IMG/VR virus record: IMGVR_UViG_3300036832_000827
Coordinates: 4,916 to 68,915 of that record
Direction: 5' to 3' (one strand)
Source of the DNA: a virus
Length of the DNA: 64,000 nucleotides
The notes beneath the pieces are model-generated. The model saw only the letters and a list, made by a program, of their open reading frames with translations. It searched no databases and was not told where the DNA came from. This document shows, piece after piece, positions 5,248 through 43,732 of this stretch. Position numbers and translations under genes: made by a program. Position 1 is the first letter of the stretch, and every line of letters starts with the position of its first letter.

Positions 5248-5288
5248 GAAAATAAAAGGGCCGGGAGTCTCCCACACCACCCGGCCCA
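5248..5288 (-). terminator. Rho-independent terminator downstream of the tas/array-1 transcript
   Basis: Minus strand GGGCCGGG...CCCGGCCC followed by TTTTATTTT. Confidence 0.6.
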
Positions 5289-5339
5289 CTTTCAAGGTTG
5301 CGGATTTTGGGGTCCGCACTCCTTGAAAACTTAAAATTG

Positions 5340-5892
5340 CTCGTTCACTGTGTGTGTAAGATCGCGATAATTAACTCGTTCGGACGTTGTGAAATTCAAC
5401 ATTTATAACTCGGTCATTGCAAATGAAATTCGCTCAGTATCACTCGTTCCCCACCTCTGAAATTCAGACTTGCTCACTCGGTCATCTTTCTTGAAATTCA
5501 GTTTTTCTAACTCGTTCTCATGGAATGAAGATCTAAACCCTTTAACTCGTTCTACGTATATGGAATTCTCGTATGCTAACTCGTTCGAATTTCAGGAAAT
5601 TCTTAATTCGTAACTCGGTCGCTGACTTTTGAAGATCGCACTCGTTACCTCGGTCGTCGATTTTGAAGATCAGCCTTGTTACCTCGTTCTATTGCCATGA
5701 AATTCCTTCGGCTGTAACTCGGTCATATATTATGAAATTCCCGCAGATTCACTCGTTCCTCAGTATTGAACATCTGTACAATTCACTCGGTCTTTGACCT
5801 TGAAATTTCCTTTACCATCACTCGTTCTAATTACTTGAAAGTCTCACCATTTAACTCGGTCGTAATATTTGTAACATCACCCTCAATCACTC
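5340..5892 (-). ncRNA. TIGR-like dual-repeat guide array 1 (16 units, ~34 nt period)
   Basis: On + strand alternating t(a/c)actcg(g/t)tc - 8 nt variable - tgaaattc (variants tgaagatc, tgtaagatc) - 8 nt variable; first repeat overlaps the stop codon of the Nop-domain gene. Confidence 0.9.
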
Positions 5893-6756
5893 AAAAGGGT
5901 CGTTCGGCGGCGCGATGTAATCTGCGTGCCCTTGTATCGCAATCGTGTACGGAGCGGCCGGACCCTTACCGAATCTATATCGATAGGCGATCTCGTGCCA
6001 GTGCGAAATAAAGAGTTTGACGGCTTTACGCTTTGCCCTGGCATGGATCTGTGCGGGCGGCAGCTTCCCGCTTGTGTAGTGGCCAAAGGCGTCGGTGTCG
6101 GTGCGGAACTTCTTCTGGCTTAGGATCTTTTTTGCCTCGTCGGCGTAGGCACCGGCGTCGTTTTGGGCCGTGTAGTATTCTTTGGCCTTCAGATAGATCT
6201 TTCCGTAAAAATCTTCTTCGCGTCCGGATTGTTTTACGAACGATTCGCCGATCTTCCAGAACAATACTTTCAGCCGGGCATTGAACGGCCGGCGCTCGCC
6301 TTTTTTCCATTCGACGTTCGGGTTGAGCCCTCCAAAGCTTTCGATATGGCCGGCTGTCGGAGCTTTTTCGATGTCGATATGAGCAAGGAGCCCGGCGGCG
6401 AGTACACCGGCGATCCCGGTTATCGACATCGACCAGCGGCCGACGGCATCGCTCTCCGCATAGGCGGTAAGAGCTCGTTGCAGTTGTTTTTCGAGATAGG
6501 CGGTGTTGTCGGCCAGCCAGCCGATGACGGCATGGGGCGTATCGGCCGCACCCGATGCCCGGACGCGTGCCGCTGCCCGGATGCGCTCTTCCTGGAGCGT
6601 GTAGTAGTAATCGACCAGAAAGCGGATCTCGTCTTTTGAGAGCGTGGCGGTCGAATCCTTGAGGTCTTTTGTGAGTTTAATGATGCCGGCCTGTTCGACA
6701 TCGGGGCCGGGTTCCGGGTCGGCGTATCTGATTTTTGTCGCTGTTGCTGTTCTCAT
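5887..6756 (-). CDS. tasA: TIGR-associated Nop-domain protein lacking a nuclease domain (TasA-like), 289 aa
   Basis: IS110/Nop-like C-terminal region (SITGIAGVLAAGLLAHID...GHIESFGGL...FNARLK...LPPAQIHARAKRKAVKLFISH) preceded only by a coiled coil; no DEDD RuvC or HNH motif seen; abuts the dual-repeat array. Confidence 0.85.
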   Translation of the reverse strand: MRTATATKIRYADPEPGPDVEQAGIIKLTKDLKDSTATLSKDEIRFLVDYYYTLQEERIRAAARVRASGAADTPHAVIGWLADNTAYLEKQLQRALTAYAESDAVGRWSMSITGIAGVLAAGLLAHIDIEKAPTAGHIESFGGLNPNVEWKKGERRPFNARLKVLFWKIGESFVKQSGREEDFYGKIYLKAKEYYTAQNDAGAYADEAKKILSQKKFRTDTDAFGHYTSGKLPPAQIHARAKRKAVKLFISHWHEIAYRYRFGKGPAAPYTIAIQGHADYIAPPNDPFE

Positions 6757-6761
6757 ATTTT

Positions 6762-7091
6762 TTAGTGTTTTGTATTATCCATCTCTTCCAAAAATTCCGA
6801 TAGTTCTTTCTGCATTCGTTCGGCTTCGGTCTCAAAATCCCCCTCGATCACTTTGTCGGCTATCTCCAAAAGCCGGCGGCTGGCGGTTCGATCTTTCGCC
6901 TTGAACACGATGAGCGGTTTTTCAAGCAAGATCGCGAATCCGACTTCAAGGGCGATCTTGATGTCGGCGCTTTTCTCGTTCGGTGCGATCGCGACGACAA
7001 GAGCGGAGTCGACGATCATCGGGCCGACCTCGCGCTCAAAGCGGGCCATGTACTCCATAAGATATTTTTGTTCTTCAGAACCGAAGGGCAT
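6762..7091 (-). CDS. Hypothetical protein, 109 aa (possible nucleoside deoxyribosyltransferase/TIR-like fold)
   Basis: ALEVGFAILLEKPLIV resembles the E-x-G-x-A-x-x-x-x-KP motif of that fold; co-transcribed with tas. Confidence 0.45.
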   Translation of the reverse strand: MPFGSEEQKYLMEYMARFEREVGPMIVDSALVVAIAPNEKSADIKIALEVGFAILLEKPLIVFKAKDRTASRRLLEIADKVIEGDFETEAERMQKELSEFLEEMDNTKH

Positions 7092-7306
7092 CAGGGTATC
7101 TCCGCTCGGAGCGTGCTGGGCGCGATCTCAAATTGCTCGATCAGGACTTTTATGACCATCAGGGCGTCTTCCTCATTCATTCCTTCGAAGGCTCCTGAGA
7201 ATTTGTCTTCCTGGCGCGAAAAAAAGACCGCGCAGATCGCATCACCGTCGTCCTTGGCGAGCTTAACAAGTGGGGCGATAAGCGTGTCATAATATTTGAT
7301 CTTCAT
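7091..7306 (-). CDS. Hypothetical protein, ~71 aa
   Basis: Likely start MKIKYY overlapping the upstream stop (ATGA). Confidence 0.5.
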   Translation of the reverse strand: MKIKYYDTLIAPLVKLAKDDGDAICAVFFSRQEDKFSGAFEGMNEEDALMVIKVLIEQFEIAPSTLRAEIP

Positions 7307-7722
7307 TGAATTTCGTCTATAAATTCCGCATCGAGCGGGTCGCCGCCTGTTACCTGGCGATCTTCGATCTCGCACATATGCTTGACGATCTGCTTGTGTC
7401 CTTCTTCGGCCTGGGCCCACGTTGAATATCGCATCATGATCTCGGCCTTCTGCCCGCGAAAGACGGCAGTTTCAAAAAGCAGCGGCGGCCCGATCCCGCC
7501 GTGGTTGTGATCGAGGCCCAGGAAAACGGTCGAGACAAAAGCGTCTCCGCTCAAGGTCGTTAGAGCAACCTGCCGATCGGCACTCTCGAACCACTCGGCA
7601 GCTTCGAGAAAATCCTCGCATGGAATGGCCTGGCGGTTCTCGTCCAGAACATAGTGCCTAATGCGGAGAAACTGCTGTAGTTCCCTTTGCCACTTTTTGA
7701 GTTCTTCCTGTAGCTGGCCCAT
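7303..7722 (-). CDS. Conserved phage hypothetical protein, 139 aa
   Basis: VSTVFLGLDHN...PLLFETAVF motif recurrent in phage hypothetical proteins. Confidence 0.6.
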   Translation of the reverse strand: MGQLQEELKKWQRELQQFLRIRHYVLDENRQAIPCEDFLEAAEWFESADRQVALTTLSGDAFVSTVFLGLDHNHGGIGPPLLFETAVFRGQKAEIMMRYSTWAQAEEGHKQIVKHMCEIEDRQVTGGDPLDAEFIDEIQ

Positions 7723-8578
7723 TGCCTACTTCTCCGCCGCTTTTTTTATCGGCCGCTTCCGGCTTACTACTGCGCTCCTTTTGTCGTGCTTCTTTTGCTG
7801 CCAGCTTGGCGGCGTCGGTGCCGTACCGGATCGGGACCTTCTTTGTCGTGCCGGAGTTGAAGATCTCTTCTATCATTAAAAGATTTTGGTCGATCTTTGG
7901 CCAGTACTGGAACATGTGTTTGTGCTCTTTCGCCCGCTCCATAAATTTATCAAAATTGAAGCCGACGCGCCCGAGGGCGATCAGCATGGCTTTTACAAAG
8001 ACATCCTGGCGATAGCCGCTCGTGTAGTCCTTAAGCTGGGCGAACATGGCCGCCTTTTTTTCGGCGTCGGCAATATCGGCGACGCGGAACTCGCCTTCGC
8101 GGAAGAGCTTTCGGCTCTCGCGCATGTCGCGTCCGGTCAAAAGGATGACGGCGACCTCATGAGGAAAGGTGTACTTCTTTCGAAATGCCCGATACGTTTT
8201 GTAGTGTTTATTGCCCAGCTCGATAAAGCTTCCGGCGTAGTCCTCATTTGTCCATTGCAGCGTTGTGTTGTTGAGCGTCTGGACGTCGTGGAGATCCATC
8301 TTCTCGCCGAACCGATAGTAGACCGGCAGTGCGAGTTCCCGCCTGGCCTCTAAGGTGTGCTGGCCGTCAACGATCTCAAAGGTCTTGTTGATAACGATCG
8401 GGACTTTCAGGTCGTGCTCCTCGATCTTTGCCTTGATGTTCTGAACATGGCCGAAACGAACAGGCCGGTTCCCCGGCATCCGTTTGAATTTGTCGTATTC
8501 CGTCGTTGTGTAGATCTTTGATTCCGGGTCGGTCGATACAAAAACCCGCTTGGGCGGCGGCGTGCTTTTTGGGGACAT
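7658..8578 (-). CDS. ParB/Srx-like N-terminal domain protein, 306 aa
   Basis: GNRPV...PIVIN...IVDGQH motif; first gene of the tas operon. Confidence 0.7.
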   Translation of the reverse strand: MSPKSTPPPKRVFVSTDPESKIYTTTEYDKFKRMPGNRPVRFGHVQNIKAKIEEHDLKVPIVINKTFEIVDGQHTLEARRELALPVYYRFGEKMDLHDVQTLNNTTLQWTNEDYAGSFIELGNKHYKTYRAFRKKYTFPHEVAVILLTGRDMRESRKLFREGEFRVADIADAEKKAAMFAQLKDYTSGYRQDVFVKAMLIALGRVGFNFDKFMERAKEHKHMFQYWPKIDQNLLMIEEIFNSGTTKKVPIRYGTDAAKLAAKEARQKERSSKPEAADKKSGGEVGNGPATGRTQKVAKGTTAVSPH

Positions 8579-8634
8579 GCTTCAGGATTCTCCTTTTCGT
8601 TTTGCTTGAGAGAGTGGTTGATTTATAAACTTTG

Positions 8635-8741
8635 CTTATATACCGTAATACTACGCACTGTCAATCGGTATTTATACGTATTTTGCCAAAAACCGACATA
8701 TAACACAACTATTGACTGCTAGTTTTTATGTGGTCTATAAT
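8635..8741. promoter_or_regulatory. Divergent sigma70 promoters (tas operon on -, RHH gene on +)
   Basis: Minus TTGACA(8664-8659)-18-TATAAG; plus TTGACT(8712)-18-TATAAT(8736). Confidence 0.6.
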
Positions 8742-8765
8742 GGCTCAAAAATCCCTTTGCGAAAA

Positions 8766-9005
8766 ATGGTAGACGAAACTATGACGAACCCACAGCGAAA
8801 GCGTCCTTCACTGATCGCTTTCAGCGCGGATGACGAAATGATAGATCGACTGAAACGGTTGGCTGCTCAGATGGGCGTGACGGTCTCGGATATTGCACGC
8901 TCGGCCCTTAGCGAGAAGCTGAATTCGCTCGAAAAGGCGATCGAGCGGGGAGAGCGTTTTGAGGTCAGGCGACCGCTTGGCGTGATCTCGCCGGTGGCGG
9001 GCTGA
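8766..9005 (+). CDS. Ribbon-helix-helix (CopG-like) regulator
   Basis: LIAFSADDEMIDRLKRLAAQMGVTVSDIARSALSEKL; start may be 8766 or 8781. Confidence 0.7.
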   Translation: MVDETMTNPQRKRPSLIAFSADDEMIDRLKRLAAQMGVTVSDIARSALSEKLNSLEKAIERGERFEVRRPLGVISPVAG

Positions 9006-9195
9006 CCGACGTTCTGGTGATCTCGAAATTGTGCTTCCAGGCGACGGTGAACCAAAGCCGGCGTAGTTCGGCGTAGATCGGTCTCGCCGTCTCCGCGTCC
9101 TCGCAAAGATCGATGATCGTCCTGAGCTCGACCAGAGCGCCCCGCGCCAGCGTTGATAAGACGAGATCTCGCATTTCCTTTTCGGCGTCGGTCAT
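8965..9195 (-). CDS. Hypothetical protein, 76 aa
   Basis: ORF starts immediately after the 3' end of array 2. Confidence 0.45.
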   Translation of the reverse strand: MTDAEKEMRDLVLSTLARGALVELRTIIDLCEDAETARPIYAELRRLWFTVAWKHNFEITRTSVSPPPARSRQAVA

Positions 9196-9213
9196 TTAGT
9201 TAAAAGTGGAAGA

Positions 9214-9900
9214 CGTTCGCATCTGTTGTAAGATCTTCAGTTATCACTCGGTCAATTTCGATGAAATTCGCCTGCTGTGACTCGGTCGCCGTTAATGAAA
9301 GTCGTTTTCTGTCACTCGGTCACTTTGATTGAAATTCCGTGCGGATCACTCGTTCGTTTCTCCTGAAATTCTCGCGCAATCACTCGTTCGCTTCATTTGA
9401 AATTCTTTAAGAATAACTCGGTCATTTCACATGTAAGATCGGACTTCGTAACTCGGTCGAGCTTCTTGAAATATCAGCATGGATGACTCGGTCACTACAA
9501 ATGAAAGATCGTAATTCCTAACTCGGTCATTGTGTTTGAAGGTCATCTTGTGTAACTCGTTCTATTATCATGAAAATTCTTCGCAGGTAACTTGGTCGCA
9601 TCTTTTGAAATTCACGGGAAATCACTCGTTCATACGCAATGCACTTCGAATCCTGTAACTCGGTCATATTTTATGAAATTCACTTCAGGCAACTCGGTCA
9701 TATATCATGAAATTCATATAACATCACTCGGTCGCACCCTATGAAATTCTCTCGCGTTCACTCGGTCAGCTTTTCTGAAATTCGCTCCAAATAACTCGTT
9801 CGTCTACAATGAAGTTCCCCACTAATAACTCGGTCATATATCATGAAATTCATTCAACATAACTCGTTCCCATTTCATGTAAGATCCTTGTCAATTAACT
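9214..9900 (-). ncRNA. TIGR-like dual-repeat guide array 2 (20 units)
   Basis: Same edge (t(a/c/g)actcg(g/t)tc) and loop (tgaaattc) repeats with 8-nt variable spacers as array 1. Confidence 0.9.
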
Positions 9901-9913
9901 GGCCGCCATTCTA

Positions 9914-26210: not shown

Positions 26211-26350
26211 CGTTCCAGGTCTTTGTAAAATCGGACGCGATCACTCGTTCAGTCTTTCTGTAATATCGGCAATCCTCACTCGTTCGTCGTCGCTGTAGTA
26301 TCGGTCTGCTTCACTCGTTCGCAATCGATGTAAGATCCATCTTCTTCACT
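26211..26350 (-). ncRNA. TIGR-like mini-array 3 (4 units)
   Basis: cgttc-8-tgtaaaatc-8-tcactcgttc-8-tgtaatatc-8-tcactcgttc-8-tgtagtatc-8-tcactcgttc-8-tgtaagatc-8-tcact. Confidence 0.85.
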
Positions 26351-26545
26351 AAGAAAATCTATCGCCATCCGTTCTCGCCGGAGCCCGTCATCTTCACTCC
26401 AAAGGCGGGTCGTGAGCTTTGCGATCTCGCTTCGCCGCCGCATGATCTCTGCCCGTCGCAGGTCCCGTTCTTCGCGGGTAAGCTGGGCGTAGTAGTTCTT
26501 CGCCTCGTAAAAATCCATCCGTTTTGGTCTCGACACGTATCTCAT
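26276..26545 (-). CDS. Hypothetical protein whose 3' end runs through array 3
   Basis: Likely start MRYVSRPK (ATGA coupling). Confidence 0.45.
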   Translation of the reverse strand: MRYVSRPKRMDFYEAKNYYAQLTREERDLRRAEIMRRRSEIAKLTTRLWSEDDGLRRERMAIDFLSEEDGSYIDCERVKQTDTTATTNE

Positions 26546-28584: not shown

Positions 28585-28656
28585 TCGTTCCTTTTATGTG
28601 TAAAATCTAAGTTCCTAACTCGTTCGTCCAAATTGTAAAATCTGCCTAGATCACTC
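28585..28656 (-). ncRNA. TIGR-like mini-array 4 (2 units)
   Basis: tcgttc-cttttatg-tgtaaaatc-taagttcc-taactcgttc-gtccaaat-tgtaaaatc-tgcctaga-tcactc fills the exonuclease-SSAP intergenic gap. Confidence 0.8.
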
Positions 28657-32104: not shown

Positions 32105-33268
32105 ATGGCAAAAAAGACGAAGGGAAAATACCGGGATCGATGCGTCGAAATCGACGGCAAGTTGTATGGGGTCCATTATTACAAAAACGAAAAGGGCGAG
32201 CAGAAAAAGAAGCTAAAAAGAGCGGCGAACCGGACGGAAGCCCGGCAGTGGGCTGAGGCTCAGCTTGTCAAATTACAAGAGACTGGCGGCGTACTTAAGA
32301 TCGAGAAAAAGACGACCTTTGCCGAACTCGCGACGTGGTACAAAACGGCGCATCTCGTTGAGGCTGTTTTTGAAAAAGGCATCAAGGTTGATGGCGTGAA
32401 GGATTGGAAAAGATTGCGCGGAAAGCTTGATAGGATGGTTGAGTATTTTGGCTCTAAGCCATTAAGCGAGATCACTACTCCTGTGCTGGTCACGTATGCG
32501 CGCTGGCGGCGCGAAACTGACAACGTGACGACGGCGACGATCAATCGTGATTTCGCGCTGATCCGTTCGGCGTTCCTTGCCGGCAAAGGTCTCCATCGAC
32601 TTTTAGAGATACCAAAGTTCCCGATCAACAACGCGGCTGAAGTCTCCCGTGAGCGCGTGCTGTCCTTTGAAGAAGAAGAGCTCCTGCTTTCGGTCTGTGT
32701 CGACAAAGAGGTCATCACGGTCGAGCGGCTGGGGCAAACATACTCGCAAGAGATCCAGGCGAAGCGGGCGCACCTGAAAAACATCATCGTTGTCGCGGTC
32801 GATACGGCGATGCGGAAAGGTGAAATATTCAAAATGGATTGGAGCGATGTCGATCTTGGGAAAGGAATAATTACGATACCGGTCTCGAACTCGAAAACAC
32901 AAAGAGAGCGAGCCGTCCCGATGACGCCGCGCGTGCGCGAAATATTCGAAGCGATGCCAAGACGCAAAGGCAAGGTCTTCGACGGCACGGGCTGCAAACG
33001 AACTTTCGCGACCGCGTGCGAACGTGTCGGGTTGGTAGACGAAAATGAGATCCACTTTCACGATCTGCGACATACCGGCACGACGCGAATGGTTCGGGCG
33101 GGTGTCCCGCATACCGAAGTAATGAAAATTACCGGACACAGTCAAATGAAAACTTTCTTGCGATACGTAAACCTGACGGCGCCGGCGATCCAAAACGCGG
33201 GGCGGTTGCTTGGTAATTATGTCGAGTCTCAGATGGCTGAGGCTGCTGACTCGGAGGCGGTGAACTAA
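32105..33268 (+). CDS. int: Tyrosine integrase, 387 aa
   Basis: DTAMRKGEI (R), SKT (K), FHDLRHT (HxxR), TGHS...FLRY (H, Y). Confidence 0.95.
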   Translation: MAKKTKGKYRDRCVEIDGKLYGVHYYKNEKGEQKKKLKRAANRTEARQWAEAQLVKLQETGGVLKIEKKTTFAELATWYKTAHLVEAVFEKGIKVDGVKDWKRLRGKLDRMVEYFGSKPLSEITTPVLVTYARWRRETDNVTTATINRDFALIRSAFLAGKGLHRLLEIPKFPINNAAEVSRERVLSFEEEELLLSVCVDKEVITVERLGQTYSQEIQAKRAHLKNIIVVAVDTAMRKGEIFKMDWSDVDLGKGIITIPVSNSKTQRERAVPMTPRVREIFEAMPRRKGKVFDGTGCKRTFATACERVGLVDENEIHFHDLRHTGTTRMVRAGVPHTEVMKITGHSQMKTFLRYVNLTAPAIQNAGRLLGNYVESQMAEAADSEAVN

Positions 33269-36200
33269 TTATCGTGCTTCCTTGGCCTCTTGACGGCGCA
33301 TAGCTTCCCGTTGGGCTCTGATGGCGGCTCGTGCCTTCTCTCTTTGGACGGCAGTTTTCAGTAGACGCGGGAAAGCTATATCGAGTGCTGACTTAACGAA
33401 TGCCAGGCCCTCGCCTTTTGTGAGTTCCTGCTTCTTGTCGCGGTTGACGCCCAGGCTGTGCATGATGTCGCCAAGCGCCGGGTTGAGATCCAGGCCTCCT
33501 TCGAGGATGTGGCGGCCGATGCCGGCAGTCTTCGGCAGATCAGGTGGTTTGAAAAATTGGGCTCCATACTGTCCTTCGCGATCTCGAAGGGCCATGAGGC
33601 TCGGTTCGTATCCGGTCGCTGCTATCGATGCCGCCCTTACGACCGGTGAGCTGGTCAACGGGCCCGCTATCGAGTTGATCGTGCCGGTCGCTCCCGATTC
33701 GAGCATCTGCTCTTTTGATCCGCCAAGGATCGCCGTGTCGTACGCTCCTGAGATGCCGAGTGCTCTCGCCCCTCTTTCGACGAGCGGCGAGAACATCCCC
33801 AGTCCGACGTAGGCGGTCTTGTCATTGTCGCCCCATATCATTTTCGCGAGCGGTGAGTTGCGGTCCTTCGGATTTAGCGGGATCTGCAAAAAGCGGCTGT
33901 CCTTGTCATTCCAGGGCATGACTCCGCGATAGGCGTAAGACGCTGCCGCCCACATCCCGAGCATCCCCAGTACGCCCCCGGAAAACTGCTGTTGAGCTCG
34001 ACGAGCCATACGCCAGCCAGGGCTTAGACCTTCGGTTGGCAACGGCGTTTTATTTAGCCATCCCAGGACGCCGTTCTTTAGCATCTGGCTGCCAGCGGTA
34101 AAGAATGGGGCTAGTTGCGAACCTTTGAGCGATCGTGACAGTTGCGATTCGAGAGCACGGTTATAGATCCCGAGCTTCTGCACGAATTCCGCTTTCTCAT
34201 AGCGCGATGCGTTGGGGTTGATCGTTTCGGCAATTTTCCACATCACGATGCGAGAGCGCGTGTCGATCCCTTTCGGGCCTGTCAAAAACGGCCTGATCGG
34301 ATTCCATGTATGCTCGATCCCGAGTTGTGCAGCCAGCTTTTTCGAAAACGTCTTGTTGGCGAACTCGCTCGGAAACGCGCCGCTTTCGGCCATGTCCCTA
34401 AGCATGGCGGGGTCGCCTTTTAGCGGGTCGGTCATCGCCACATGGATGATCCCAGTAAGGATCTTTGTCGCCGGTGTATTGCCGATCGTGCGTGAAAGAA
34501 TATCCTGGCCTATGAATGGCGTTCCGCCGATAAGTCCGCCGACGAGATTCGCTGTATGGTAAATGGGCTCAAGAAGTCCGGTAGCACCAAACATGTTTAG
34601 CCGATTGAGTGTTTTGTTGACGATATTTGGGTCGTCCGGGTGTTCGAGCACGGGCTTTAGTTCCTTTGCCAGCCACTTCGGCACGGTGTACGGAACATTG
34701 CCGATCCGAAGGAAAGTCGTTGGTTGGCCCATGATCTCCGATGGCGGCTCGGCACCCGGCTTTAACGGTTTAGCGAGTCCCGCTATCTCCACCGAATCCT
34801 GCAAGTCGCTCATGTTCTGGTCTCTCAGGGCCTTTGCGATCTCAGGTGTCGGATTGGCTCCCGCGAGTATCTGCGCCTGGATCTGAGCGGTGGTCGTGGC
34901 ATACTTGACGACCTCGTCGGCCGCTTCCGGATCGACGTGGCGCAACTCGTTGAGGTTTTTGTTTACGAAGTTCTCAAGCGAGCGGGCCGACCTCATCACC
35001 TTGCCGCTCGTCAAGGCGTCATCGAGTTTGCCGAGGATCTTACGGGTAGCTGAGAAGCTTAATTTTTGTTGTACAGGACGTGTTTCAGGAACCTTTCCTT
35101 GTTGAAGTTCGGATGGCTGGGGTCGACCTTCACCATAAGCCGCTTGGCCCTGGCCGCCGCCTGGTCCCCGTGTTTCTCCCCGATCTCGTAGCTCAGTAGG
35201 AACTTGGCCTTTTCCTTCGGACTCCATCCCTGGGAGATGGCCTTGAGATTCGCTAGTGCGGCTTCTTTGCTCATATCGTTGAATTGCTTTTTCTGTTTGT
35301 TTACTGATGCCGCCAAGGGCTTGTCTGACCCGCTCTGCGGTTACGCCTTCAGAGCGTAGGTGCTTTTCGTATGCTAATTGTAACTCAGCAACCTCTCTGC
35401 GCGTCAAACCGAGATCGAGATGGCCGTCATCCCGATAGGCTTTGTTCATGATCTCTTTATACATGCCGGCATCGGAGATGTTCCGGTAGCTGGGCACGGT
35501 TCGTAAATTGGCCTCAGCTTTCTTGTAGGCCTGAAGTCCTCTGCCTTTGTCCGATATTTTGCCGCCTAGCAGTTCCTCGTGGGCTTGGTGAAATCGCTCT
35601 TCCTGGCGGGTTCCTTCGGACAGCGTAGGATAGTTCTCATCGACCAGACCAGTCGGAAGACCGTGTTCAGGGTGAACATTATCCTCAAAGGTCTTGATGA
35701 TCCGATCGAGGCCGTCGGCCATTTCGGGATGCTCCTTGCTGACAGAATCTCGCGCCAGCTTCAGCGCGTTGGTTACGTCTGCAACGTCTGCCGGCAGCAT
35801 CTGAAGTCCCAGGAACCTCTCGTCTGGCTCTACGCCGCCCAGTCTTCTGAGGAGGCGGTGCATTAACTCCAAGGCCGGTACGTTCATCTCGATCATCGGA
35901 CTTTTTGGATCTTTGGTGAACGTGGCGTCTCGCAGCAATTCACTATCCTTCTTATCCGCCAGGCCCGCTTGTTCCTGCCTAAGCTGATCGACCTCCTTGT
36001 TATAGTTTTCGATATGAGCCCGGTCCTCGGCCGGAGTCTCGGGTTCGGGAAGATGTTCGGCCGCATTGAAATTGATGTCGCCGGGGGTGATCGTCCTGTC
36101 ACCTTTGGGAGGCCTGAACAGATCTGACTGGGCCTCTTTCCGAGAGCTCTTCGCCAGGCCCTCTTCTGTTTCCCGCTTACCGATCTCGCCGATGTCCGCG

Positions 36201-39200
36201 ACCGTGAATCCCCCCTTGTCGCGAAATAGGGCGAGTTCCTTACCGGGATTCTTCTCTTGAAGCTCGGTTAATTTTGCTTTGGCGGTTGCCTTATCGGTCG
36301 GTTCTATGAGGCGATCGATCCTCTCGGGCGCGAATGGCGTCTCTTCGGCCTTGGTCTCGGGTTCGATCCGCTCGGCCGCATTGCTGTCTGCGATCTTTTT
36401 GAATTGCTCTGGCGTGAGTAGGTGGACATCTCCAGCCTTATTTTCGAGTTCGACCTTTCCCTCATCGTTGATGCCTTCAAAACGATAGGTGCCTTTCGGG
36501 AGGCCGGAAACGTCGCGGTTGGTCGCGATGCGATCGCCTTCCCGGAACTCCGTCCCTTTCTTTGTGGTGATCGCTGCCTCGGCTGGCTTGGTGACGGCTG
36601 GCTCTTCTCTCGGTGCTTCGGCCTTTGAGACTTCGGGCGGCTCGGTCACTTTCGCCGATGGCTCGGCGGGCTTGGCTTCGACTTGGCCCGTTGCCTCATC
36701 GACAAATTTATAGATCGCGTCGATCGCATTGTCGCGGGCCTCTTCGGATTTGAAGTAAAGGGTCTTTGTACGGTCGTTGGCAAAGTCCAGTTGGAGCCCG
36801 GCGTTTGCAACACCTTCAATCTGCGCTTTTCCGCCTTTTGTGATCCCGGTAATTGATGTCGGCTTTTCTTCTGAATAGGAAATACCCCTAAAGTTCTCTG
36901 GATATTCGCTAAGAAATCCAAGAGCGTCATTGTTTTTAGCTCCGAGACCGTGAAGGGCGCTGTTGTCAAGGCCCTCGATGTCGCGGGCCATTATTCGTGG
37001 TTTTTGAGTCGATGGCTCGGCAGGCTTCGCGGCGCGTTCGGCTGCTGCGGCCTCGAACGTCTGACCAGGTGTGGACAGAAGATCCTTGGGGTCCATCTTC
37101 CCACTAAGGATGTCGTCGATGGCTGCGGCGTCCTTTTCAGGATCGAGATGGTATTTCTTGATTAGGTCGGCGCGGCGTGTCGCCTCATGCTCAGCCTCAA
37201 CGGCGGCAGCTTTCTGCTCGGCGATCGTCGTGGTCGGCTTCCCTGGCTTGGTTTCTTCGGTGGTTTTTAGTTCTTCCGGCTTTCCAGCTCGTGCCTCAGG
37301 CGATCCTTCCTGATCTGGCCGCGAAGCTTGTTTATCCTCTTGTTTAGGGCCTCGCTGTCCTGTCTCATCTTCAAGTTCCCTTCTTTCAATGATCTCTCTA
37401 CGAGCTTGCTGATATATCCGGTCGAGGTTGGTTTCCTTGAGGGGTTTTCCATTCGCTAAGAGACTATCATAGAGCTCCGACTTCTTAAAGCCCTTAATGC
37501 TGTCGTGCGGCAACGGGTCTTCCTCTGTCCCATATTTTGCTATAACGTCCTTCAGCCAGCCTGGGAAAAACTTACCTTCGCGAAAGGGAATGATCTGGTT
37601 TGTTATGAACGCATCGGCGGCTTGAATGGTGTCCAGAAATGCATCGGCGGTCTTGCCGTCTTTAGGCAGCGCGTCACGGTGATTGGCAATCCAGTCAAGC
37701 CACTCTTCGGGCGTCATGTACGACGAGCGCTCCTTGCCGAACTGCTCCTGGGCCATCTTGTCGCGGAAAGCGGAAAACGCTGTTTTGAAAGCGGCGTGGT
37801 CGGCGTCGGCCGGCAACGCGTGGTCTCCCAGGCCGATCGCTTTAAGTAGCTGGTTGACCATCTTGATGCGGTCCGCCTTCTCCGCGTCGGGCATGGCTCC
37901 TTCGAGGCCAAAGCGGTCGATCATGTAGTTGTTGACCATCCCGTGAGGTCCGGGTATGGGCAATTCTTTAAGTCCTTTGACCTGGTCGACGGAGATCCCT
38001 AATTTCTCCGCGATGGCGTCGTCCGTCTTGCCGTCGCGCTTCATCCGGCGCGCTTCTCTTGTGGCCTCTGGCGTGAGTGGCTCGGGTTTGCCGGGAAAGA
38101 GTCCTGGCACTTCGCCAACTCCGGCACCCACGGTCGCGGGTTCGCCTTCCTTGGCAGGTTCGGGTTTTACTTCTTCAGCTTTAGGGGTTTCAGCGGCGGG
38201 GGCTGCGGCAGTGGTCGCGGCGCCGGGGGCGGTTTCGGCTCGTTCATGATCTGCGCGTGGTTCGTTCTCAAGATCCGGCCCAGCACCCTCGGGCTGAACT
38301 CCCTGCCGTGCTTCGTTATAAGCCTGGAATATCGCATCGCCGTGGGTAGCTCCACTTTCGGCGTCGGTGGCAAGGGGTTCAAGGCCGTGTTCGAGCTGCT
38401 TGTCGTCGTAGGCTTGTCTAAGTCGTCTGACGTCGGGGTCGGATTCGTTGAATCTGAGGTTGCCATTCGGGTCATAGTCTACTCCTTCGTCGTTATCGAT
38501 CCTATCGCGTATTTCGTCCAGGATCTTTTGAGCTTCCGGGTCTTGGAGAAAGTTCTTCGTGCTCCGGATCAGCGCGGCCTGTCTTCGGGCGTACTCTCCT
38601 GCGGCTTCCGGAGCGTTGTCACGCTTGCGGACATATTCCTCTTCGGCTGCGGCGTAGTCGGTGTTGTCGTAAAGCTTCTCGAAATCATCCTTCGAAAAGT
38701 GCAGGCCGCGTCCCGTTTCCTTGTGACTGGCGACGTCGTCTTCGATAGCCGTCCACAACTGATTGCCATTGGCATCTCGTCGGTCGGGCCAGAGGTCGCG
38801 CAGGTAGCCGGCATCCCAGGCCATCACGGCCATTTGCTCGGCGGTAAAGGGCGCGTTTTGGTTCTTAAGGCCGGAACTGCCGGTCTCTTTGTCCGACAGA
38901 CGCCGGCCCTCGCCGCTGTCTCGTGATACTGGTCTGATCCCGCTTTGCCCGTCTCGCTTCTGGCGCACCCATTGGGAAAGCGACTTGACTCCCTGCGGCA
39001 CGGGCGGCTGCGTTTTGCCGCCTTCTTCGGTGCCGGGTCCGCCCATTGCCCATGGCGGGACTTCTTCCTCTGTTGGCGGCTTCGCAGGTTCGGCTGCGAT
39101 TTCCGCTTCACCCTCAGATGGGACGTGTATTGGAAGCGATGCGTGTGCGGTGGGTGTGATTTTGTCGCCTTCTGGCCTCTCAAAGTGAATTATCACATCT

Positions 39201-42200
39201 GCGGCGGCCCCAGTTCCGGCTCGCTCCCCGACGCCTTCGCGGGTTTCACGAATGTTTACTTCGACGGGCTTGCCTCGATGTGGGCCGGTCGTCTCCCAAT
39301 CTTCAACGTCATCGGGATGTGGTCTGTATTCCTGTTTGAATTGTTCCCAAGATATAACGCGCCCACCTAGTGTGGTCTTTCTGCCGTCAGCTCGAAATCC
39401 ACTGAAAACCGTTTTTCGAACGCCGTCCTTTTCAGTTGTTTCCGCTGTCCACGTACCGCCTGACGGGTTCGTGCCGCTTGTGGGGCTTTCTGTCGGCGTC
39501 TCGGCCTTTGGCGTCGGCTGGGCTACTTCTTCTCTTCGAAGTCGCTCACGCTCGTCGCTGAGCGCGGCGTGTTCGTGGGTGCGGTCTGGCAGCGGCAGGC
39601 GGTTATCGCCCGTGATCGCGGCGATACGTTTGTCGAGCTCCTTGATGGCTCCTGGCCGGCCGTGTTTCTCTACAAGAGCGTTCGCCACTTGTTTTGCGTT
39701 GGCCTTGGCCTTGTCTTTGTTGGCTTGCTCTTCGGCTGCGGCCTTGGCCTTTTCTTCCGTTGCGGCCTTGGCTTTGGCCACTCCTTCGAGGCGGCCGGGC
39801 TCGTTCGCGATGTAGTCTGCGGCGTCTGTTTTTGGAACGTTCGCATCCGGCAACTTGCTGCGGTAGACTTTCTCACCCTTCGGGCCGTAATTGAACCGGC
39901 GCGCTTCCAGGGAACCGGTCGGCGTCTGGCGGCCGGTAAGCTCAACCATTCCGTGCTGCGGGTGCATGAAGGTCTGACCTGCGAGATCGCTCGTCGCCTT
40001 TGGCGTCGGCATCTTCCCGGAGTCGAGTTCTGCCCTGCCTCGTTCGCTTATCAGTTGGTGAGCGTAATCCTCGTATGAAAGTCTATACGTGTCGTCCGAA
40101 TTGAAGTCGACGATCCCTGCCTTGTGAAGTTTGCGGAGAGCTTTCTGGACCTGGTCGAGTGGTGCGTTGTTGAGTGCTTTCGCGATCTCCGTAGAGGACA
40201 TTCGCTTGTCGCCAGTCAGGGCCCTGATGATCGGCTCGGCGTGCTTATCCCTGTTGATCGCGTATGCGACATCCTGGACGCGCGGGTTTGTTTTCCGCAG
40301 AGCTCCTTCTTCGGGCTCTTTGATCCCTGCGATCGGCTCTGCGCCGGGTGCTGTCGCGGTCGGCTCCGCTGCTGCGGTCGGTGCTGCTGTCGGCGCTGCT
40401 GGCTCGGGAATGTTAATTCCCGCTTTCCTCGCAGCGTCACGCAGCGCGGCCGGATCGCGAAGTCTGCTGGCGTCCGGTTTCACCGATTTTACGATCTTGC
40501 TGGCCTGCTTTGGATCTACTCCATTTGCGACCAGATATTTGTGTGCGTCCTCTGCCCCGAGTGGCTCTTCTGCGGGTGCAGCGGCCGTAGTCGGCTCGCC
40601 TGTCGGCGTTGTCGTCGGTTCGCCTGTCGGCGTCGTCGGCGCTGCGGGTGGAGTCTCGGTTGGTGGCGTCGGTGGAATTATCGGTTGGCCGGCGATGCCA
40701 AGCGGTTCTGTCGCCGTTCCTGTCGGCGTCGGCGTCGGGGCTCCTGGCGTTTCCTCGGTCGGCGGCGCTTGATATTGGTCGGTAAGCCCGAGGGGCTCGG
40801 CTCCGAACCTACGCGGGCCTTTGACGCCTGGCGCTTCTGGTGCTTCTGGATATACGAGCGGCGGTTTTGCCTGATTGCGCCAGTCATTGACCGTTCTTAA
40901 CTCGGCATCGATGTCGTCGATGCGAGAGCCGCTTCCCGGTTTGGGAACCTGTATGTCTTCCTGGGCCGCTGTCGAATTCGGAAAGAGACGCTGATAATTC
41001 GCGTACTCCGCATCTGTCATCGGCCGGAGTAGCCCTTGCTTCTCCTTATAGAGGTTGTCCTCATGCTGGCTGAGCACGCCGATATGTCTCGGCCCGATGA
41101 TCGCCTGCTGCACGCCGTCCGGCACCTTGCCCGTAACGTCGGTCAACGTGATGCCTCCGCCTTCCTTTTTGGTGATAAGGACATCTCTCGGATTCCCCTG
41201 GTTGTCCGGCAAGCGGATAAACTTGTTGTCCAGTTTTTCGAGAGTTTTGATATCGGCTTCCGTGGGGTCGGCTGTTGTTCTCTTTCCCTTACCGGCCATC
41301 GCAAAGTGCAGGATGCCCATGAGAAGAGCTTGGTCCAGCGCCTCATCCGATGTCCCGCCTTGGGCCTTCACCTGACCGTAGGTGATACTTCCTATGGTTG
41401 CGGCTCCGAGACTTTCGTTGGTGAGCCTTGAGATGATCTGTCCCGCTCCGGCTGTCGTGTCGAGGCCGACGCTTGTGGCCAGCTTTTCGATCAGCGGTCC
41501 GGTCAATCCTTCGAGGATCGCCGGCGTCTCAAAAACTGCTCCGGTGAGACCGTCCTTCCAGGATTGCATAACCATCTCGCCGAACGGTCTGTTGGTGTTC
41601 GTCAAAGCTCCGTGAATGGCAAAGCCAAGGATCGGATCGCCGCCCGCCGCTACCGTTGAGCCGATGATTCCGGGAAAATCGCCAAGCCCCTGCGCGGCTG
41701 CGACGACCCTGCTGAAATTCGGATTTGGCTGGCCGTTTGGGAGCTTCTCGGGATTTGCTGCCTGGGCGGCGATGCCTGCCCCTTCGGACAATCTATCAAG
41801 CCAGGCGCTGGCGTTCCCGCCTGTTGCCCAGTTAAGCACCGGCTGCGTGTAGCGTAAGGCTCCCGCTCCCATCGCCGCTATGTCCCTGACCAACTCAAGC
41901 CCAGGCTGCGTGCCAACACGATTGAGAAGATTTTCCTTCCCTATCGTCTGACCGGCCTGCTGCATCTGAGCGATCTGCTGGTCGGTCATCTTTGTCTTGT
42001 TGAAATCGATGTCCTGAGTCAGCAAGTCTCGTTTGGCTTGGGCGACAAGTGCCGGGTTGCCTGCTACGGCGTAGGGCATGAGGTAGCGCTCAGCCGCCAG
42101 GGAACCGAGTTGCTGCTGCTGCTGCTCTGTCTTAGCTTTCTGTAAGTTGCGGAAGCTTCCGTAGTTTCCTAAAACGTTACTGACGAGGTCGTTGAGTTCC

Positions 42201-43732
42201 TTCGTGTGAGTACTTACATAATCCTGGTCGGGAAAGCCTGCCTGCTGCTTGATAGCGTTATAGGCTTTGGCTTCGTCATTCGCATCGGTTCTGAGACCTG
42301 CCTGCTGGTCGGCAAATATCTGTGCGAGATAGTCATCGTTGCCGTTGTTCTTGAGCAGCGTCGCTTTGTAGTCCTGCGATACGCCCTGCGCCTGTTTTGT
42401 CTGTCCGTACGCGTCAAGGATCTTTTGTATGAACTGGCTTGGGACAAGCTGCTGATGGGCCTGCCCGGTTTGAGCATTCGACTTTGCCAGATCCTCAAGG
42501 TTGCTCTCGGTCGTGCCGCCGCCCATCTTGTCGGCGTACTGCATCGGCTGTCGATCGACGTAAGCCTTCACAAAGTCGTACGGAACGCCCGTCGCCTGTG
42601 AGATACGGTACGTACTGGCGTCTTTTATGAACTGCGAATAGGTTTGGTCGGCCGGTTTTTCTCTCAGGTCTATTCCAAACTTGATGTCTTGCGGCGCGTA
42701 CTGGTTCGTGACAACGTTGGCCATCTGGTCCGGCGCTGGCGGCTGAGCGGGTTGTGCTGGTGCTCCGGGAGCTCCGGGCGCCGTGGGCGCTCCGGTTGGC
42801 TGCTGCTCTCCGGGCTGTCTGTATGTGATCTGACTGGGATCGATCTGCTGGCCGCCCTCGGTGTAGCCCGTATCCGGGGCTACCTCCGTGTTGGCTGAGC
42901 CGGTAGGCTGTGCGGCCGCCTTGAAAAAATCGTCCCGCGAAATTGGCGTCTGGCCTTGATCCTGGGTGAACTTCAAATACTGCTGATAGTCATCCTCGCT
43001 CGCCGGCGCAGCATTTTCGGCTGGAGCCTGTGTTGCGATCGGAAGTGTCGGCGCTACTGTCGTCGGCGCCGGCCGCGCTCCGGGAAGTGTCGCGGGCGAT
43101 GGCTGCTGTCCAAGGAACTGCGCAAGGCTTGGAGCATTCGCTCTGGACGCGGCCAATTTCGCGCTGATGTTGCGGACGTAGTTCTGTGTTTCTGGAACGT
43201 TTGGGATCTGCCCGTTTCGAAGGGCCTGCTTATATTCGCCCCCGTTGTATCCGGCAAGTGCGAGATTTTCGTCGCCGCCAAACTGATCGAGAAGTTTCCG
43301 CATGTAGCGGGCCTGGCCGTTGATCGATTGGATAGGATCGGTTCGATCGGTGACGCCGTACTTTGCGGCGGTGGCGGGCATGAACTGACCTGCCCCAAGC
43401 GCTCCGGCTGAGGAGCCGCGCCTTCCGTAGAGCACGTCCGGGCTGAAGCTTGTTTCCTGGCGGCCTTGTTCGAGAAGCAAGTTCGGGTCGACGTCGTTCG
43501 CGCGGCCGGCCTGTTCATAGAGACTGTCGAGTTTTGGGTGGCCGCTCGTCGTGTGAAGCAAACTAAAACCGCTCGGAAGATCTACGTTGTCGGCGTATGA
43601 CGGATATTTGCGTACGACGCGCGCCGCAAGATCGCTGTTGTCAAGATCGGCGTACTCGGGATATTTATCCTTGATCCGCTGAGCGAAATCGTCGACGGAC
43701 AGTTTCTGGTCAGTGTTGTCGCCATCGGCCAT
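33269..43732 (-). CDS. Giant internal virion/DNA ejection protein with N-terminal lytic transglycosylase, 3487 aa
   Basis: SLT motifs QETSF, GALGAGQFMPATA, ALAGYNGG within the first ~200 aa; last gene of the virion module. Confidence 0.75.
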   Translation of the reverse strand: MADGDNTDQKLSVDDFAQRIKDKYPEYADLDNSDLAARVVRKYPSYADNVDLPSGFSLLHTTSGHPKLDSLYEQAGRANDVDPNLLLEQGRQETSFSPDVLYGRRGSSAGALGAGQFMPATAAKYGVTDRTDPIQSINGQARYMRKLLDQFGGDENLALAGYNGGEYKQALRNGQIPNVPETQNYVRNISAKLAASRANAPSLAQFLGQQPSPATLPGARPAPTTVAPTLPIATQAPAENAAPASEDDYQQYLKFTQDQGQTPISRDDFFKAAAQPTGSANTEVAPDTGYTEGGQQIDPSQITYRQPGEQQPTGAPTAPGAPGAPAQPAQPPAPDQMANVVTNQYAPQDIKFGIDLREKPADQTYSQFIKDASTYRISQATGVPYDFVKAYVDRQPMQYADKMGGGTTESNLEDLAKSNAQTGQAHQQLVPSQFIQKILDAYGQTKQAQGVSQDYKATLLKNNGNDDYLAQIFADQQAGLRTDANDEAKAYNAIKQQAGFPDQDYVSTHTKELNDLVSNVLGNYGSFRNLQKAKTEQQQQQLGSLAAERYLMPYAVAGNPALVAQAKRDLLTQDIDFNKTKMTDQQIAQMQQAGQTIGKENLLNRVGTQPGLELVRDIAAMGAGALRYTQPVLNWATGGNASAWLDRLSEGAGIAAQAANPEKLPNGQPNPNFSRVVAAAQGLGDFPGIIGSTVAAGGDPILGFAIHGALTNTNRPFGEMVMQSWKDGLTGAVFETPAILEGLTGPLIEKLATSVGLDTTAGAGQIISRLTNESLGAATIGSITYGQVKAQGGTSDEALDQALLMGILHFAMAGKGKRTTADPTEADIKTLEKLDNKFIRLPDNQGNPRDVLITKKEGGGITLTDVTGKVPDGVQQAIIGPRHIGVLSQHEDNLYKEKQGLLRPMTDAEYANYQRLFPNSTAAQEDIQVPKPGSGSRIDDIDAELRTVNDWRNQAKPPLVYPEAPEAPGVKGPRRFGAEPLGLTDQYQAPPTEETPGAPTPTPTGTATEPLGIAGQPIIPPTPPTETPPAAPTTPTGEPTTTPTGEPTTAAAPAEEPLGAEDAHKYLVANGVDPKQASKIVKSVKPDASRLRDPAALRDAARKAGINIPEPAAPTAAPTAAAEPTATAPGAEPIAGIKEPEEGALRKTNPRVQDVAYAINRDKHAEPIIRALTGDKRMSSTEIAKALNNAPLDQVQKALRKLHKAGIVDFNSDDTYRLSYEDYAHQLISERGRAELDSGKMPTPKATSDLAGQTFMHPQHGMVELTGRQTPTGSLEARRFNYGPKGEKVYRSKLPDANVPKTDAADYIANEPGRLEGVAKAKAATEEKAKAAAEEQANKDKAKANAKQVANALVEKHGRPGAIKELDKRIAAITGDNRLPLPDRTHEHAALSDERERLRREEVAQPTPKAETPTESPTSGTNPSGGTWTAETTEKDGVRKTVFSGFRADGRKTTLGGRVISWEQFKQEYRPHPDDVEDWETTGPHRGKPVEVNIRETREGVGERAGTGAAADVIIHFERPEGDKITPTAHASLPIHVPSEGEAEIAAEPAKPPTEEEVPPWAMGGPGTEEGGKTQPPVPQGVKSLSQWVRQKRDGQSGIRPVSRDSGEGRRLSDKETGSSGLKNQNAPFTAEQMAVMAWDAGYLRDLWPDRRDANGNQLWTAIEDDVASHKETGRGLHFSKDDFEKLYDNTDYAAAEEEYVRKRDNAPEAAGEYARRQAALIRSTKNFLQDPEAQKILDEIRDRIDNDEGVDYDPNGNLRFNESDPDVRRLRQAYDDKQLEHGLEPLATDAESGATHGDAIFQAYNEARQGVQPEGAGPDLENEPRADHERAETAPGAATTAAAPAAETPKAEEVKPEPAKEGEPATVGAGVGEVPGLFPGKPEPLTPEATREARRMKRDGKTDDAIAEKLGISVDQVKGLKELPIPGPHGMVNNYMIDRFGLEGAMPDAEKADRIKMVNQLLKAIGLGDHALPADADHAAFKTAFSAFRDKMAQEQFGKERSSYMTPEEWLDWIANHRDALPKDGKTADAFLDTIQAADAFITNQIIPFREGKFFPGWLKDVIAKYGTEEDPLPHDSIKGFKKSELYDSLLANGKPLKETNLDRIYQQARREIIERRELEDETGQRGPKQEDKQASRPDQEGSPEARAGKPEELKTTEETKPGKPTTTIAEQKAAAVEAEHEATRRADLIKKYHLDPEKDAAAIDDILSGKMDPKDLLSTPGQTFEAAAAERAAKPAEPSTQKPRIMARDIEGLDNSALHGLGAKNNDALGFLSEYPENFRGISYSEEKPTSITGITKGGKAQIEGVANAGLQLDFANDRTKTLYFKSEEARDNAIDAIYKFVDEATGQVEAKPAEPSAKVTEPPEVSKAEAPREEPAVTKPAEAAITTKKGTEFREGDRIATNRDVSGLPKGTYRFEGINDEGKVELENKAGDVHLLTPEQFKKIADSNAAERIEPETKAEETPFAPERIDRLIEPTDKATAKAKLTELQEKNPGKELALFRDKGGFTVADIGEIGKRETEEGLAKSSRKEAQSDLFRPPKGDRTITPGDINFNAAEHLPEPETPAEDRAHIENYNKEVDQLRQEQAGLADKKDSELLRDATFTKDPKSPMIEMNVPALELMHRLLRRLGGVEPDERFLGLQMLPADVADVTNALKLARDSVSKEHPEMADGLDRIIKTFEDNVHPEHGLPTGLVDENYPTLSEGTRQEERFHQAHEELLGGKISDKGRGLQAYKKAEANLRTVPSYRNISDAGMYKEIMNKAYRDDGHLDLGLTRREVAELQLAYEKHLRSEGVTAERVRQALGGISKQTEKAIQRYEQRSRTSESQGHLPGMESEGKGQVPTELRDRGETRGPGGGQGQAAYGEGRPQPSELQQGKVPETRPVQQKLSFSATRKILGKLDDALTSGKVMRSARSLENFVNKNLNELRHVDPEAADEVVKYATTTAQIQAQILAGANPTPEIAKALRDQNMSDLQDSVEIAGLAKPLKPGAEPPSEIMGQPTTFLRIGNVPYTVPKWLAKELKPVLEHPDDPNIVNKTLNRLNMFGATGLLEPIYHTANLVGGLIGGTPFIGQDILSRTIGNTPATKILTGIIHVAMTDPLKGDPAMLRDMAESGAFPSEFANKTFSKKLAAQLGIEHTWNPIRPFLTGPKGIDTRSRIVMWKIAETINPNASRYEKAEFVQKLGIYNRALESQLSRSLKGSQLAPFFTAGSQMLKNGVLGWLNKTPLPTEGLSPGWRMARRAQQQFSGGVLGMLGMWAAASYAYRGVMPWNDKDSRFLQIPLNPKDRNSPLAKMIWGDNDKTAYVGLGMFSPLVERGARALGISGAYDTAILGGSKEQMLESGATGTINSIAGPLTSSPVVRAASIAATGYEPSLMALRDREGQYGAQFFKPPDLPKTAGIGRHILEGGLDLNPALGDIMHSLGVNRDKKQELTKGEGLAFVKSALDIAFPRLLKTAVQREKARAAIRAQREAMRRQEAKEAR

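Follow-up and report, generated by a model that had tools for sequence, protein, structure and literature searches.

A predicted dual-repeat TIGR-TasA system with 34- and 35-nt guide units in a phage of about 69 kb

Results

Overall organization of the locus

The window analyzed here is a stretch of 64,000 nucleotides (nt) of viral DNA, covering positions 4,916 to 68,915 of IMG/VR record IMGVR_UViG_3300036832_000827, which with its 68,915 bases represents a nearly complete phage genome. On the minus strand, read 5′ to 3′ from position 9905 to 5337, lie in this order a repeat array (A2), an open reading frame (ORF) of 76 amino acids (aa), a ParB-like gene, three small ORFs, the tasA gene, a second array (A1) and hairpins. 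With high confidence, we assign the locus to a dual-repeat TIGR-TasA system of a soil phage of ~69 kb; judged by its sequence, the TIGR-TasA locus is genuine and probably functional. A preliminary description of the same DNA had recognized the 289-aa gene with a 16-unit array on the minus strand and a 20-unit array upstream, and both the positions and the unit counts are confirmed here, the distance from the end of A2 to the start of tasA being 2.46 kb. Two mini-arrays (A3 and A4) lie outside the range covered by that description and bring the total to 42 TIGR units in four arrays (16 + 20 + 4 + 2), all on the minus strand.

TasA is predicted to be a Nop-domain protein without a nuclease domain

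The NCBIfam model NF052498.1 (TIGR_Tas_endo) matches the protein with an E-value of 4.5e-55 and 186.9 bits against a cut-off of 100, over model positions 1–214 of 215, the match beginning at TasA residue 44. Sequence searches of the PDB with TasA return TasR (9mty) and TasH first and then IS621 and ISCro4, and a profile built from 49 relatives gives E-values of 7.9e-22 for TasR 9mty, 9.8e-13 for TasH and 1.4e-5 for IS621. The AlphaFold2 (AF2) model of TasA, with a mean predicted local distance difference test score (pLDDT) of 87.4, consists of helices only, with zero β-strands, and includes long helices at residues 41–71 and 76–101 that precede the Nop part. In a Foldseek search with this model, ranks 1–10 are occupied without exception by chains of TasH or TasR (E 1.6e-7 to 1.2e-5), to which it aligns over 244–268 columns, and IS110-type recombinases come next. 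The preliminary description had proposed to compare the protein with Tas, Nop5 and IS110 by hidden Markov models and structure; the best model and the top ten folds in this comparison are Tas, and IS110 is weaker.

General-purpose libraries mislead on the identity of TasA: its sole Pfam match is PF02371 (IS116/IS110/IS902; E 2.5e-4, 21.8 bits), and PHROGs labels the family “transposase”. These labels, together with the weaker structural and profile matches to IS621 and ISCro4, are what would be expected of an IS110-family (bridge-RNA) transposase, or a remnant of one, to which the repeats are unrelated. We regard this as exceedingly improbable and largely refuted, since the NCBIfam IS110 model NF033542.1 reaches only 20.1 bits, below its cut-off of 140, as compared with the score of the TIGR-Tas model, the absence of β-strands leaves no DEDD/RuvC-like catalytic domain, Tas structures outrank those of IS110 proteins, and the gene abuts a regular guide array.

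No nuclease family is found in TasA by Pfam, and a protein of 289 residues without a β-strand can contain neither an HNH nor a RuvC domain, which assigns it to the TasA subtype and agrees with the earlier statement that RuvC and HNH are absent. On the basis of sequence and predicted fold, the 289-aa protein is thus a Tas protein of the nuclease-less TasA type. SpTasH cuts guide precursors with Tyr289 and His296 (PMC13421893), which align with Tyr270 and His277 of TasA. His277 is invariant in 49 of 49 relatives and Tyr270 is kept in at least 90%, and the two residues are predicted to be the guide-processing pair.

The family is large, with 2,551 proteins at E ≤ 0.001 among the candidates of one search and 2,445 cluster representatives in another; TasA relatives are encoded by 406 of 432 IMG/VR candidate stretches and also occur in prophage-like regions of Acidobacteriota and other bacteria. 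A tblastn search with TasA gave no match among 50,697 GenBank phage records. Close relatives are present in the structural alignment of Data S1 of Faure et al. 2025 (Science, PMC12045711), and two TasA peptides were not found in the four supplement files searched as text.

Anatomy of the arrays

A TIGR unit begins with the edge repeat of 10 nt (GAMCGAGTKA), which is followed by spacer A (8 nt), a loop repeat of 8 or 9 nt and spacer B (8 nt). Within the window, 32 copies of the edge motif are found, exclusively on the minus strand, as compared with a mean of 0.54 and a maximum of 3 in 100 shuffles, and the combined edge, spacer and loop pattern is observed 23 times against an expectation of 0.03. 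A strict pattern for the processed unit (AGKNR, N8, GA-N4-5-MA, N8, GAMCG), scanned over the whole 68.9-kb record, has 37 matches on the minus strand (31 in A1 and A2, four in A3 and two in A4), a single match on the plus strand and none in 50 shuffles. Tandem repeats of period 34 are reported by Tandem Repeats Finder at 5614–5686, 9244–9334, 9330–9406 and 9656–9866. In the 24 units whose length is exactly 34 nt, the 10 positions of the edge and the 8 of the loop mostly carry 1.8–2.0 bits of information, and the two 8-nt spacer blocks 0.0–0.4 bits; all 40 spacer pairs counted are distinct.

In length, 24 of the 42 units measure 34 nt, 17 measure 35 nt and one measures 36 nt, so that only one has the 36 nt published for dual-repeat guides, and the period of ~34 nt given in the preliminary description holds exactly for the first group. 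Its scheme of units bounded by AGTKA and GAMCG with 8-nt spacers stands, except that the loop is exactly GAATTTCA in no more than 15 of the 40 units counted, the remainder having loop variants of 8 or 9 nt, for example GATCTTACA. Each of the four arrays opens with an edge reduced to its 3′ half (AGTKA); A2, A3 and A4 stop after the 5′ half, GAACG, and A1 stops at GAACGAG. Termini of this kind are expected if the transcript is cut at GAMCG|AGTKA, which would yield guides of 34 or 35 nt. The first edge of A2 is both degenerate and 5′-truncated (..CCAGTTA). That of A1 is 5′-truncated as well, and its last three bases form the tasA stop codon TGA (5889–5887), so that the gene ends within the first repeat, as had been noticed before. 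Truncated edge repeats at the ends of TIGR arrays are described by Faure et al. 2025 (PMC12045711).

The hairpin region behind A1 folds with an energy of −44.1 kcal/mol (z = −3.63, with 0 of 200 shuffles as stable), and a terminator scan also flagged part of it. A single TIGR unit does not fold stably by itself, in agreement with the dual-repeat type, and no Rfam family matched within the window. The TIGR-Tas architecture with a TasA protein, as originally proposed, is borne out by the NCBIfam model, the matches to solved structures, the predicted fold and the anatomy of the arrays.

A CRISPR-Cas locus has one repeat of ~25–36 nt, spacers of similar size and cas genes. CRISPR-Cas was considered as a candidate and rejected, since the arrays combine two different repeats of 8–10 nt with 8-nt spacers and a Pfam scan of 39 ORFs in the window found no cas family.

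A further feature concerns the units at the array termini. The first and last units of A2 (9905–9870 and 9253–9219) and of A1 (5896–5862 and 5381–5347) have a 9-nt loop of the form ..TTACA, which is also present in every unit of A3 and A4 and throughout the array of the closest relative, L106. Only one interior unit, A2.14, shares it; by a hypergeometric estimate, the chance that five such units among 36 positions occupy all four termini is ~1 in 12,000. This distribution hints at growth of the arrays from within, the units with the derived GAATTTCA loop having been inserted in the interior rather than at a terminus.

Outlying mini-arrays

One isolated match to the edge motif led to further units and thereby to A3 and A4, 20–23 kb from the main locus. 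All six units of the two mini-arrays are 35 nt long with a 9-nt loop. In A3, the first edge is reduced to AGTGA, and a T-run follows the closing GAACG; a small ORF (26276–26544, minus strand) runs through its first two units with its last ~27 codons and has its stop codon, TGA (26278–26276), inside an edge repeat. A4 begins right behind the stop codon (28659–28657) of a RecE-like exonuclease gene. Coding sequence is thus flush against guide units at three places, i.e., at tasA, the small ORF of A3 and the RecE-like gene. In the relative G001, a 36-kb record that is ~41% complete, all eight pattern matches adjoin tasA and none is dispersed.

Unit length across TasA loci

The dominant repeat period was typed in 185 loci encoding TasA relatives; near-duplicates are included, and the counts therefore refer to loci and not to lineages. 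A clear array period is present in 140 of them: 36 nt in 125 loci, 35 nt in eight, 34 nt in four (L044, L089, L115 and L147) and 38 nt in three, with the period unclear in 43 and no period in two. In the 36-nt loci the unit is built as 10 + 8 + 10 + 8, i.e., with 8-nt spacers, and the relatives with such units have GAG...CCA in both repeats. The 34-nt loci differ solely by an 8-nt loop of the form GA-N4-CA; the shorter period is thus caused by a loop repeat of 8 instead of 10 nt, and the edge remains at 10 nt. In a FastTree phylogeny of 140 TasA sequences, which is poorly resolved, the five 34-nt rows require four state changes and are not significantly clustered (29 of 500 shuffles are as low). 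The 34-nt unit is therefore a recurrent small variation, with no support for a single clade, and the suggestion that the short period and the 8-nt spacers mark a distinct subtype is not upheld: 8-nt spacers are the norm of the clade, and the 34-nt period occurs in four other loci of 140.

An 8-nt loop is mechanistically plausible, given that, in the published TasR structure, the bases at the centre of the loop repeat are not contacted in a sequence-specific manner and that the edge repeat, which is cut, keeps its 10 nt. It also falls within the 8–12-nt repeats of Faure et al. 2025 (PMC12045711), and a total spacer of 16 nt has already been published for SpTIGR. The 34-nt units contradict the wording of the preprint 10.64898/2026.09.09.750476, in passages of which the dual-repeat units are called “uniform 36-nt” and “fixed 36-nt”. 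As described, the rules of TIGRFinder use repeat gaps of 4–5 bp and CCA-type boxes, and an array like that of the window might escape them. A length of 34 nt is not mentioned in the three TIGR texts searched; figs S4, S5 and S14 of Faure et al. and TIGRSafari may list such arrays.

Spacers and candidate targets

Spacers are poorer in G+C than the genome (0.560), with values of 0.456 for spacer A and 0.353 for spacer B; of 5,000 random samples, three fell to the level of spacer A and none to that of spacer B. The same holds for 54 related loci (L001–L173), where spacer B lies below the G+C content of the locus in 51 and spacer A in 48. Across the TasA clade, the deficit averages 8–10 points relative to the surrounding locus, and a clade-wide A+T richness of spacers was not found stated in the sections of the TIGR papers searched. 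Within A2, spacers A and B of unit A2.06 (9733–9700) agree at 7 of 8 positions, so that the predicted target of this unit is an A+T-rich near-palindrome; unit A2.02 (9869–9836) closely repeats A2.06, differing from it at 2 of 16 nt.

Targets of the spacer pairs were sought on both strands and in both arrangements of the half-sites, i.e., the reverse complement (rc) of spacer A followed by spacer B, rc(A)+B, and B+rc(A), because the published statements of the cleavage rule did not fix the orientation. The outcome is among several points that weigh against the assignment of the locus to a working dual-repeat TIGR-TasA system. The 42 spacer pairs have no match with ≤1 mismatch in the 68.9 kb of the phage itself, and 1.3 Mb of related loci contain three matches at 1 mismatch, where ten re-paired controls gave 0–3 per arrangement. 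In the large public collections, exact 16-mers recur too often by chance to single out a target. Several units are degenerate in loop or edge. Both repeats begin with GA, edges ending in TTA, TGA or GTA and loops in TCA or ACA, so that their 3′ ends share only the final A and the published rule of box C/box D covariation is half followed; positions 9 and 3 of the edge showed no covariation, whether compared inside one edge or over a whole unit (Fisher p = 0.74). Finally, transcription and guide processing in this phage are predictions from its published relatives.

A TIGR-TasA system could also serve the phage itself, in regulation of its own genes or as an aid to integration, and not act against foreign DNA. 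Roles of this kind are proposed in the Discussion of Faure et al. 2025 (PMC12045711), the phage has an integrase gene (32105–33268), and the A+T-rich spacers resemble promoter regions. We consider such a use unlikely, as it is opposed by the lack of close self-matches in either arrangement and by the three matches at 2 mismatches in the phage genome, which are about at chance level.

Gene neighbourhood

The coordinates of the arrays and of the genes around them are compiled in Table 1.

Table 1 Features of the main TIGR-TasA locus and of the outlying mini-arrays
Feature	Position	Strand	Description
tasA	5887..6756	minus	289-aa Nop-domain Tas protein (predicted); NCBIfam, PDB, AF2 and Foldseek evidence
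TIGR array A1	5337..5896	minus	16 units (5896–5347) and terminal edge (5346–5337) GAACGAGCAA; directly after tasA
TIGR array A2	9214..9905	minus	20 units (9905–9219) and 3′ half-edge GAACG from 9218
Two hairpins after A1	5249..5332	minus	second hairpin (5287–5258) G+C-rich, then UUUUAUUUU; intrinsic-terminator-like
Mini-array A3	26211..26355	minus	4 units (26350–26211), 35 nt each, loop GATNTTACA
Mini-array A4	28586..28656	minus	2 units (28655–28586), 35 nt each, loop GATTTTACA, ends GAACG
ParB/Srx-like gene	7658..8578	minus	306 aa, conserved GNR and DGQH motifs; upstream of tasA; phrog_12305, E 8.2e-27
Three small ORFs	7303–7722, 7091–7420, 6762–7091	minus	between ParB-like gene and tasA; phrog_18163 for 6762–7091 only
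Ribbon-helix-helix (CopG/RelB-like) gene	8712..9005	plus	divergent from ParB-like gene; PF01402, E 1.7e-5
76-aa ORF	8965..9195	minus	starts directly after A2; conserved in L106 and L115

The ParB/Srx-like protein matches phrog_12305, a group of ParB-like partition proteins, but no Pfam or NCBIfam family; its AF2 model has a pLDDT of 78, and the top Foldseek matches, ParB, Noc, KorB and sulfiredoxin, are weak (E 4e-3 and worse). The gene lies 0.9 kb from tasA on the same strand, with three ORFs in between, two of which are conserved in the related phage L106. The ribbon-helix-helix protein, which also matches NF048017 below its cut-off (E 1.1e-5), is possibly a local regulator. An A+T-rich divergent intergenic region (8579–8781) separates its gene from the ParB-like gene and is likely the control region of the operon; a promoter-like site on the plus strand (8712–8741, TTGACT-18-TATAAT) matches 11 of 12 positions. 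The promoter scan of the window returned no more sites than in shuffles and called no minus-strand promoter before A2.

The position of a ParB/Srx-like gene between the two large arrays raises the possibility that the 34-bp repeats are not guide genes, but DNA binding sites (a centromere or iterons) for the ParB-like protein, as in the partition systems of phage-plasmids. Partition sites are often clusters of repeats. The distribution of the two families speaks strongly against this explanation, which we rate as very improbable: the same array architecture flanks TasA in well over 100 loci that do not have this ParB-like gene, and 79 of 80 IMG/VR loci encoding ParB-like relatives have neither an array nor TasA within 8 kb. 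In addition, conservation is confined to short blocks, no two units share the 16 nt between these blocks, and the 37 strict units on one strand, with their half-repeat boundaries and the terminator, are not accounted for by binding sites.

Within the TIGR-TasA assignment, the question arises whether the two proteins act together. The ParB-like family is found near TasA in only two of the 185 TasA loci, L106 and L115/L186, and is absent from the other 183; both loci share several further genes with the window, and the adjacency in them may reflect inherited gene order. The family itself is small (24 proteins in one search and 220 confirmed stretches in IMG/VR). Another ParB-like family adjoins TasA in 7 of 145 loci, and Faure et al. 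2025 (PMC12045711) report operons in which tasA is combined with a parB-like gene (tasParB) and which are surrounded by arrays. The predicted complex of TasA and the ParB-like protein scored 0.00 in both runs (mark 0.32), which gives no verdict either way. Family-wide co-occurrence argues against an obligate partnership, and a functional one is unproven. We nevertheless put forward, as a speculative and rather improbable scenario, that TasA at 16-bp sites chosen by its 42 guides would be a programmable loader for the neighbouring ParB-type clamp, i.e., an RNA-guided “parS”, from which the clamp would extend along the DNA, silencing or repositioning a region of the host or a competing element. 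In the window, L106 and L115/L186, which are related phages, the two genes lie on the same strand.

Other features of the phage

Library scans assign to the phage, besides the integrase, a RecE-like exonuclease and a tail-fibre-assembly-like protein. The minus-strand ORF at 33269–43732 encodes 3,487 aa with an N-terminal part resembling lytic transglycosylases and endolysins, and its product probably belongs to the virion interior or the tail. A 386-aa ORF (49276–50436) contains tandem repeats with periods of 42 and 126 nt (49722–50196); it encodes a repetitive structural protein and has no relation to the TIGR arrays. No tRNA gene was found in the window, and a 945-aa protein of the phage has no relative in the genome contig collection. 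The sole sequencing run containing the record is soil metagenome DNA, which may be its source.

Discussion

The family membership and fold of TasA, its lack of a nuclease domain, the anatomy and boundaries of the arrays, the conservation of the predicted processing residues and the absence of self-targets are established here directly; from published relatives, we infer transcription, processing, DNA binding and silencing. Activity of the system is plausible from its sequence, as the ORF is intact, the Tyr/His pair is conserved, and the array ends and the terminator are in place.

All four minus-strand arrays would be transcribed, A1 probably together with the operon that extends from the ParB-like gene to tasA and ends at the terminator, and A3 and A4 as parts of other phage operons. 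A TasA dimer would bind each unit through the GA...NA ends common to edge and loop repeats and cut inside the edge repeat (GAMCG|AGTKA) by means of Tyr270 and His277. The product would be a tigRNA of 34 or 35 nt, composed of AGUKA, spacer A, loop, spacer B and GAMCG. This complex is predicted to bind a DNA site of 16 bp, in which one strand would pair with spacer A and the adjacent 8 nt of the opposite strand with spacer B; TasA, lacking a nuclease, would block transcription or replication there without cutting. Host DNA or competing mobile elements are the probable targets, because none is found in the phage itself. Another TasA, MbTasA, displays guide-dependent DNA binding and represses transcription (preprint 10.64898/2026.09.09.750476), and by analogy, in line with the published discussion of such systems, the most likely role of the system would be guide-directed binding that silences host DNA or competing elements.

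The TIGR-TasA family, the tasA-parB operon and the function of TasA are already in print, and the family has solved structures and a curated NCBI model. The details added here, i.e., units of 34–35 nt, two distant mini-arrays, A+T-rich spacers and distinct terminal units, are useful but modest, and leave the picture of what TIGR-TasA is unchanged. With this locus, the family gains a near-complete phage genome. Dual-repeat guides are not uniformly 36 nt long, since 15 of the 140 typed loci have 34, 35 or 38 nt; with the length change residing in the loop repeat, this fits the published structure, in which the middle bases of the loop make no specific contacts. Guide units at a distance of 20–23 kb from tas would be missed by surveys limited to ~5 kb around it, and the clade-wide A+T richness of spacers constrains ideas on targets or DNA unwinding.

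With IS110/IS621 recombinases and archaeal box C/D Nop5 complexes, TasA shares an RNA-binding fold of the Nop type, and the system shares a two-part guide with box C/D-like flanks, as set out in the Discussion of Faure et al. 2025 (PMC12045711). In contrast to IS110/IS621, the TasA of the window has no DEDD catalytic domain and no single bridge RNA, the guides being arranged in tandem arrays; unlike for Nop5 complexes, neither fibrillarin nor L7Ae appears among the 39 window ORFs scanned with Pfam.

The closest structural match is SpTasH of Salicola phage CGphi29 (PDB codes 9W03, 9W04 and 21KL; PMC13421893), with which TasA shares the core of Nop domain and predicted coiled coil (Foldseek E 1.6e-7, TM-score ≤0.72), a total spacer of 16 nt and the aligned Tyr/His residues. 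SpTasH carries an N-terminal HNH nuclease and cuts DNA, whereas TasA of the window lacks a nuclease domain and shows an identity of ~18% to SpTasH in the aligned region.

Compared with the dual-repeat TIGR-TasA systems described in PMC12045711 and in the preprint 10.64898/2026.09.09.750476, the locus differs in its units of 34–35 instead of 36 nt (loop of 8–9 instead of 10 nt), in an edge repeat that ends in TKA and not in CCA, and in the two mini-arrays located 20–23 kb from tas and wedged between unrelated genes. Unlike in the tasParB-tasA operon, the ParB-like gene is set off from tasA by the three small ORFs and belongs to a family that mostly occurs without TasA. In all other respects compared, the locus resembles the published systems. 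It encodes a solo Nop-domain Tas protein in which the Tyr/His pair for processing is conserved, edge and loop repeats alternate and are separated by two short spacers, and arrays are found on both sides of tas. The arrays end in truncated edges with a terminator behind them, a ParB-like gene shares the strand of tasA, and the whole system lies in a phage.

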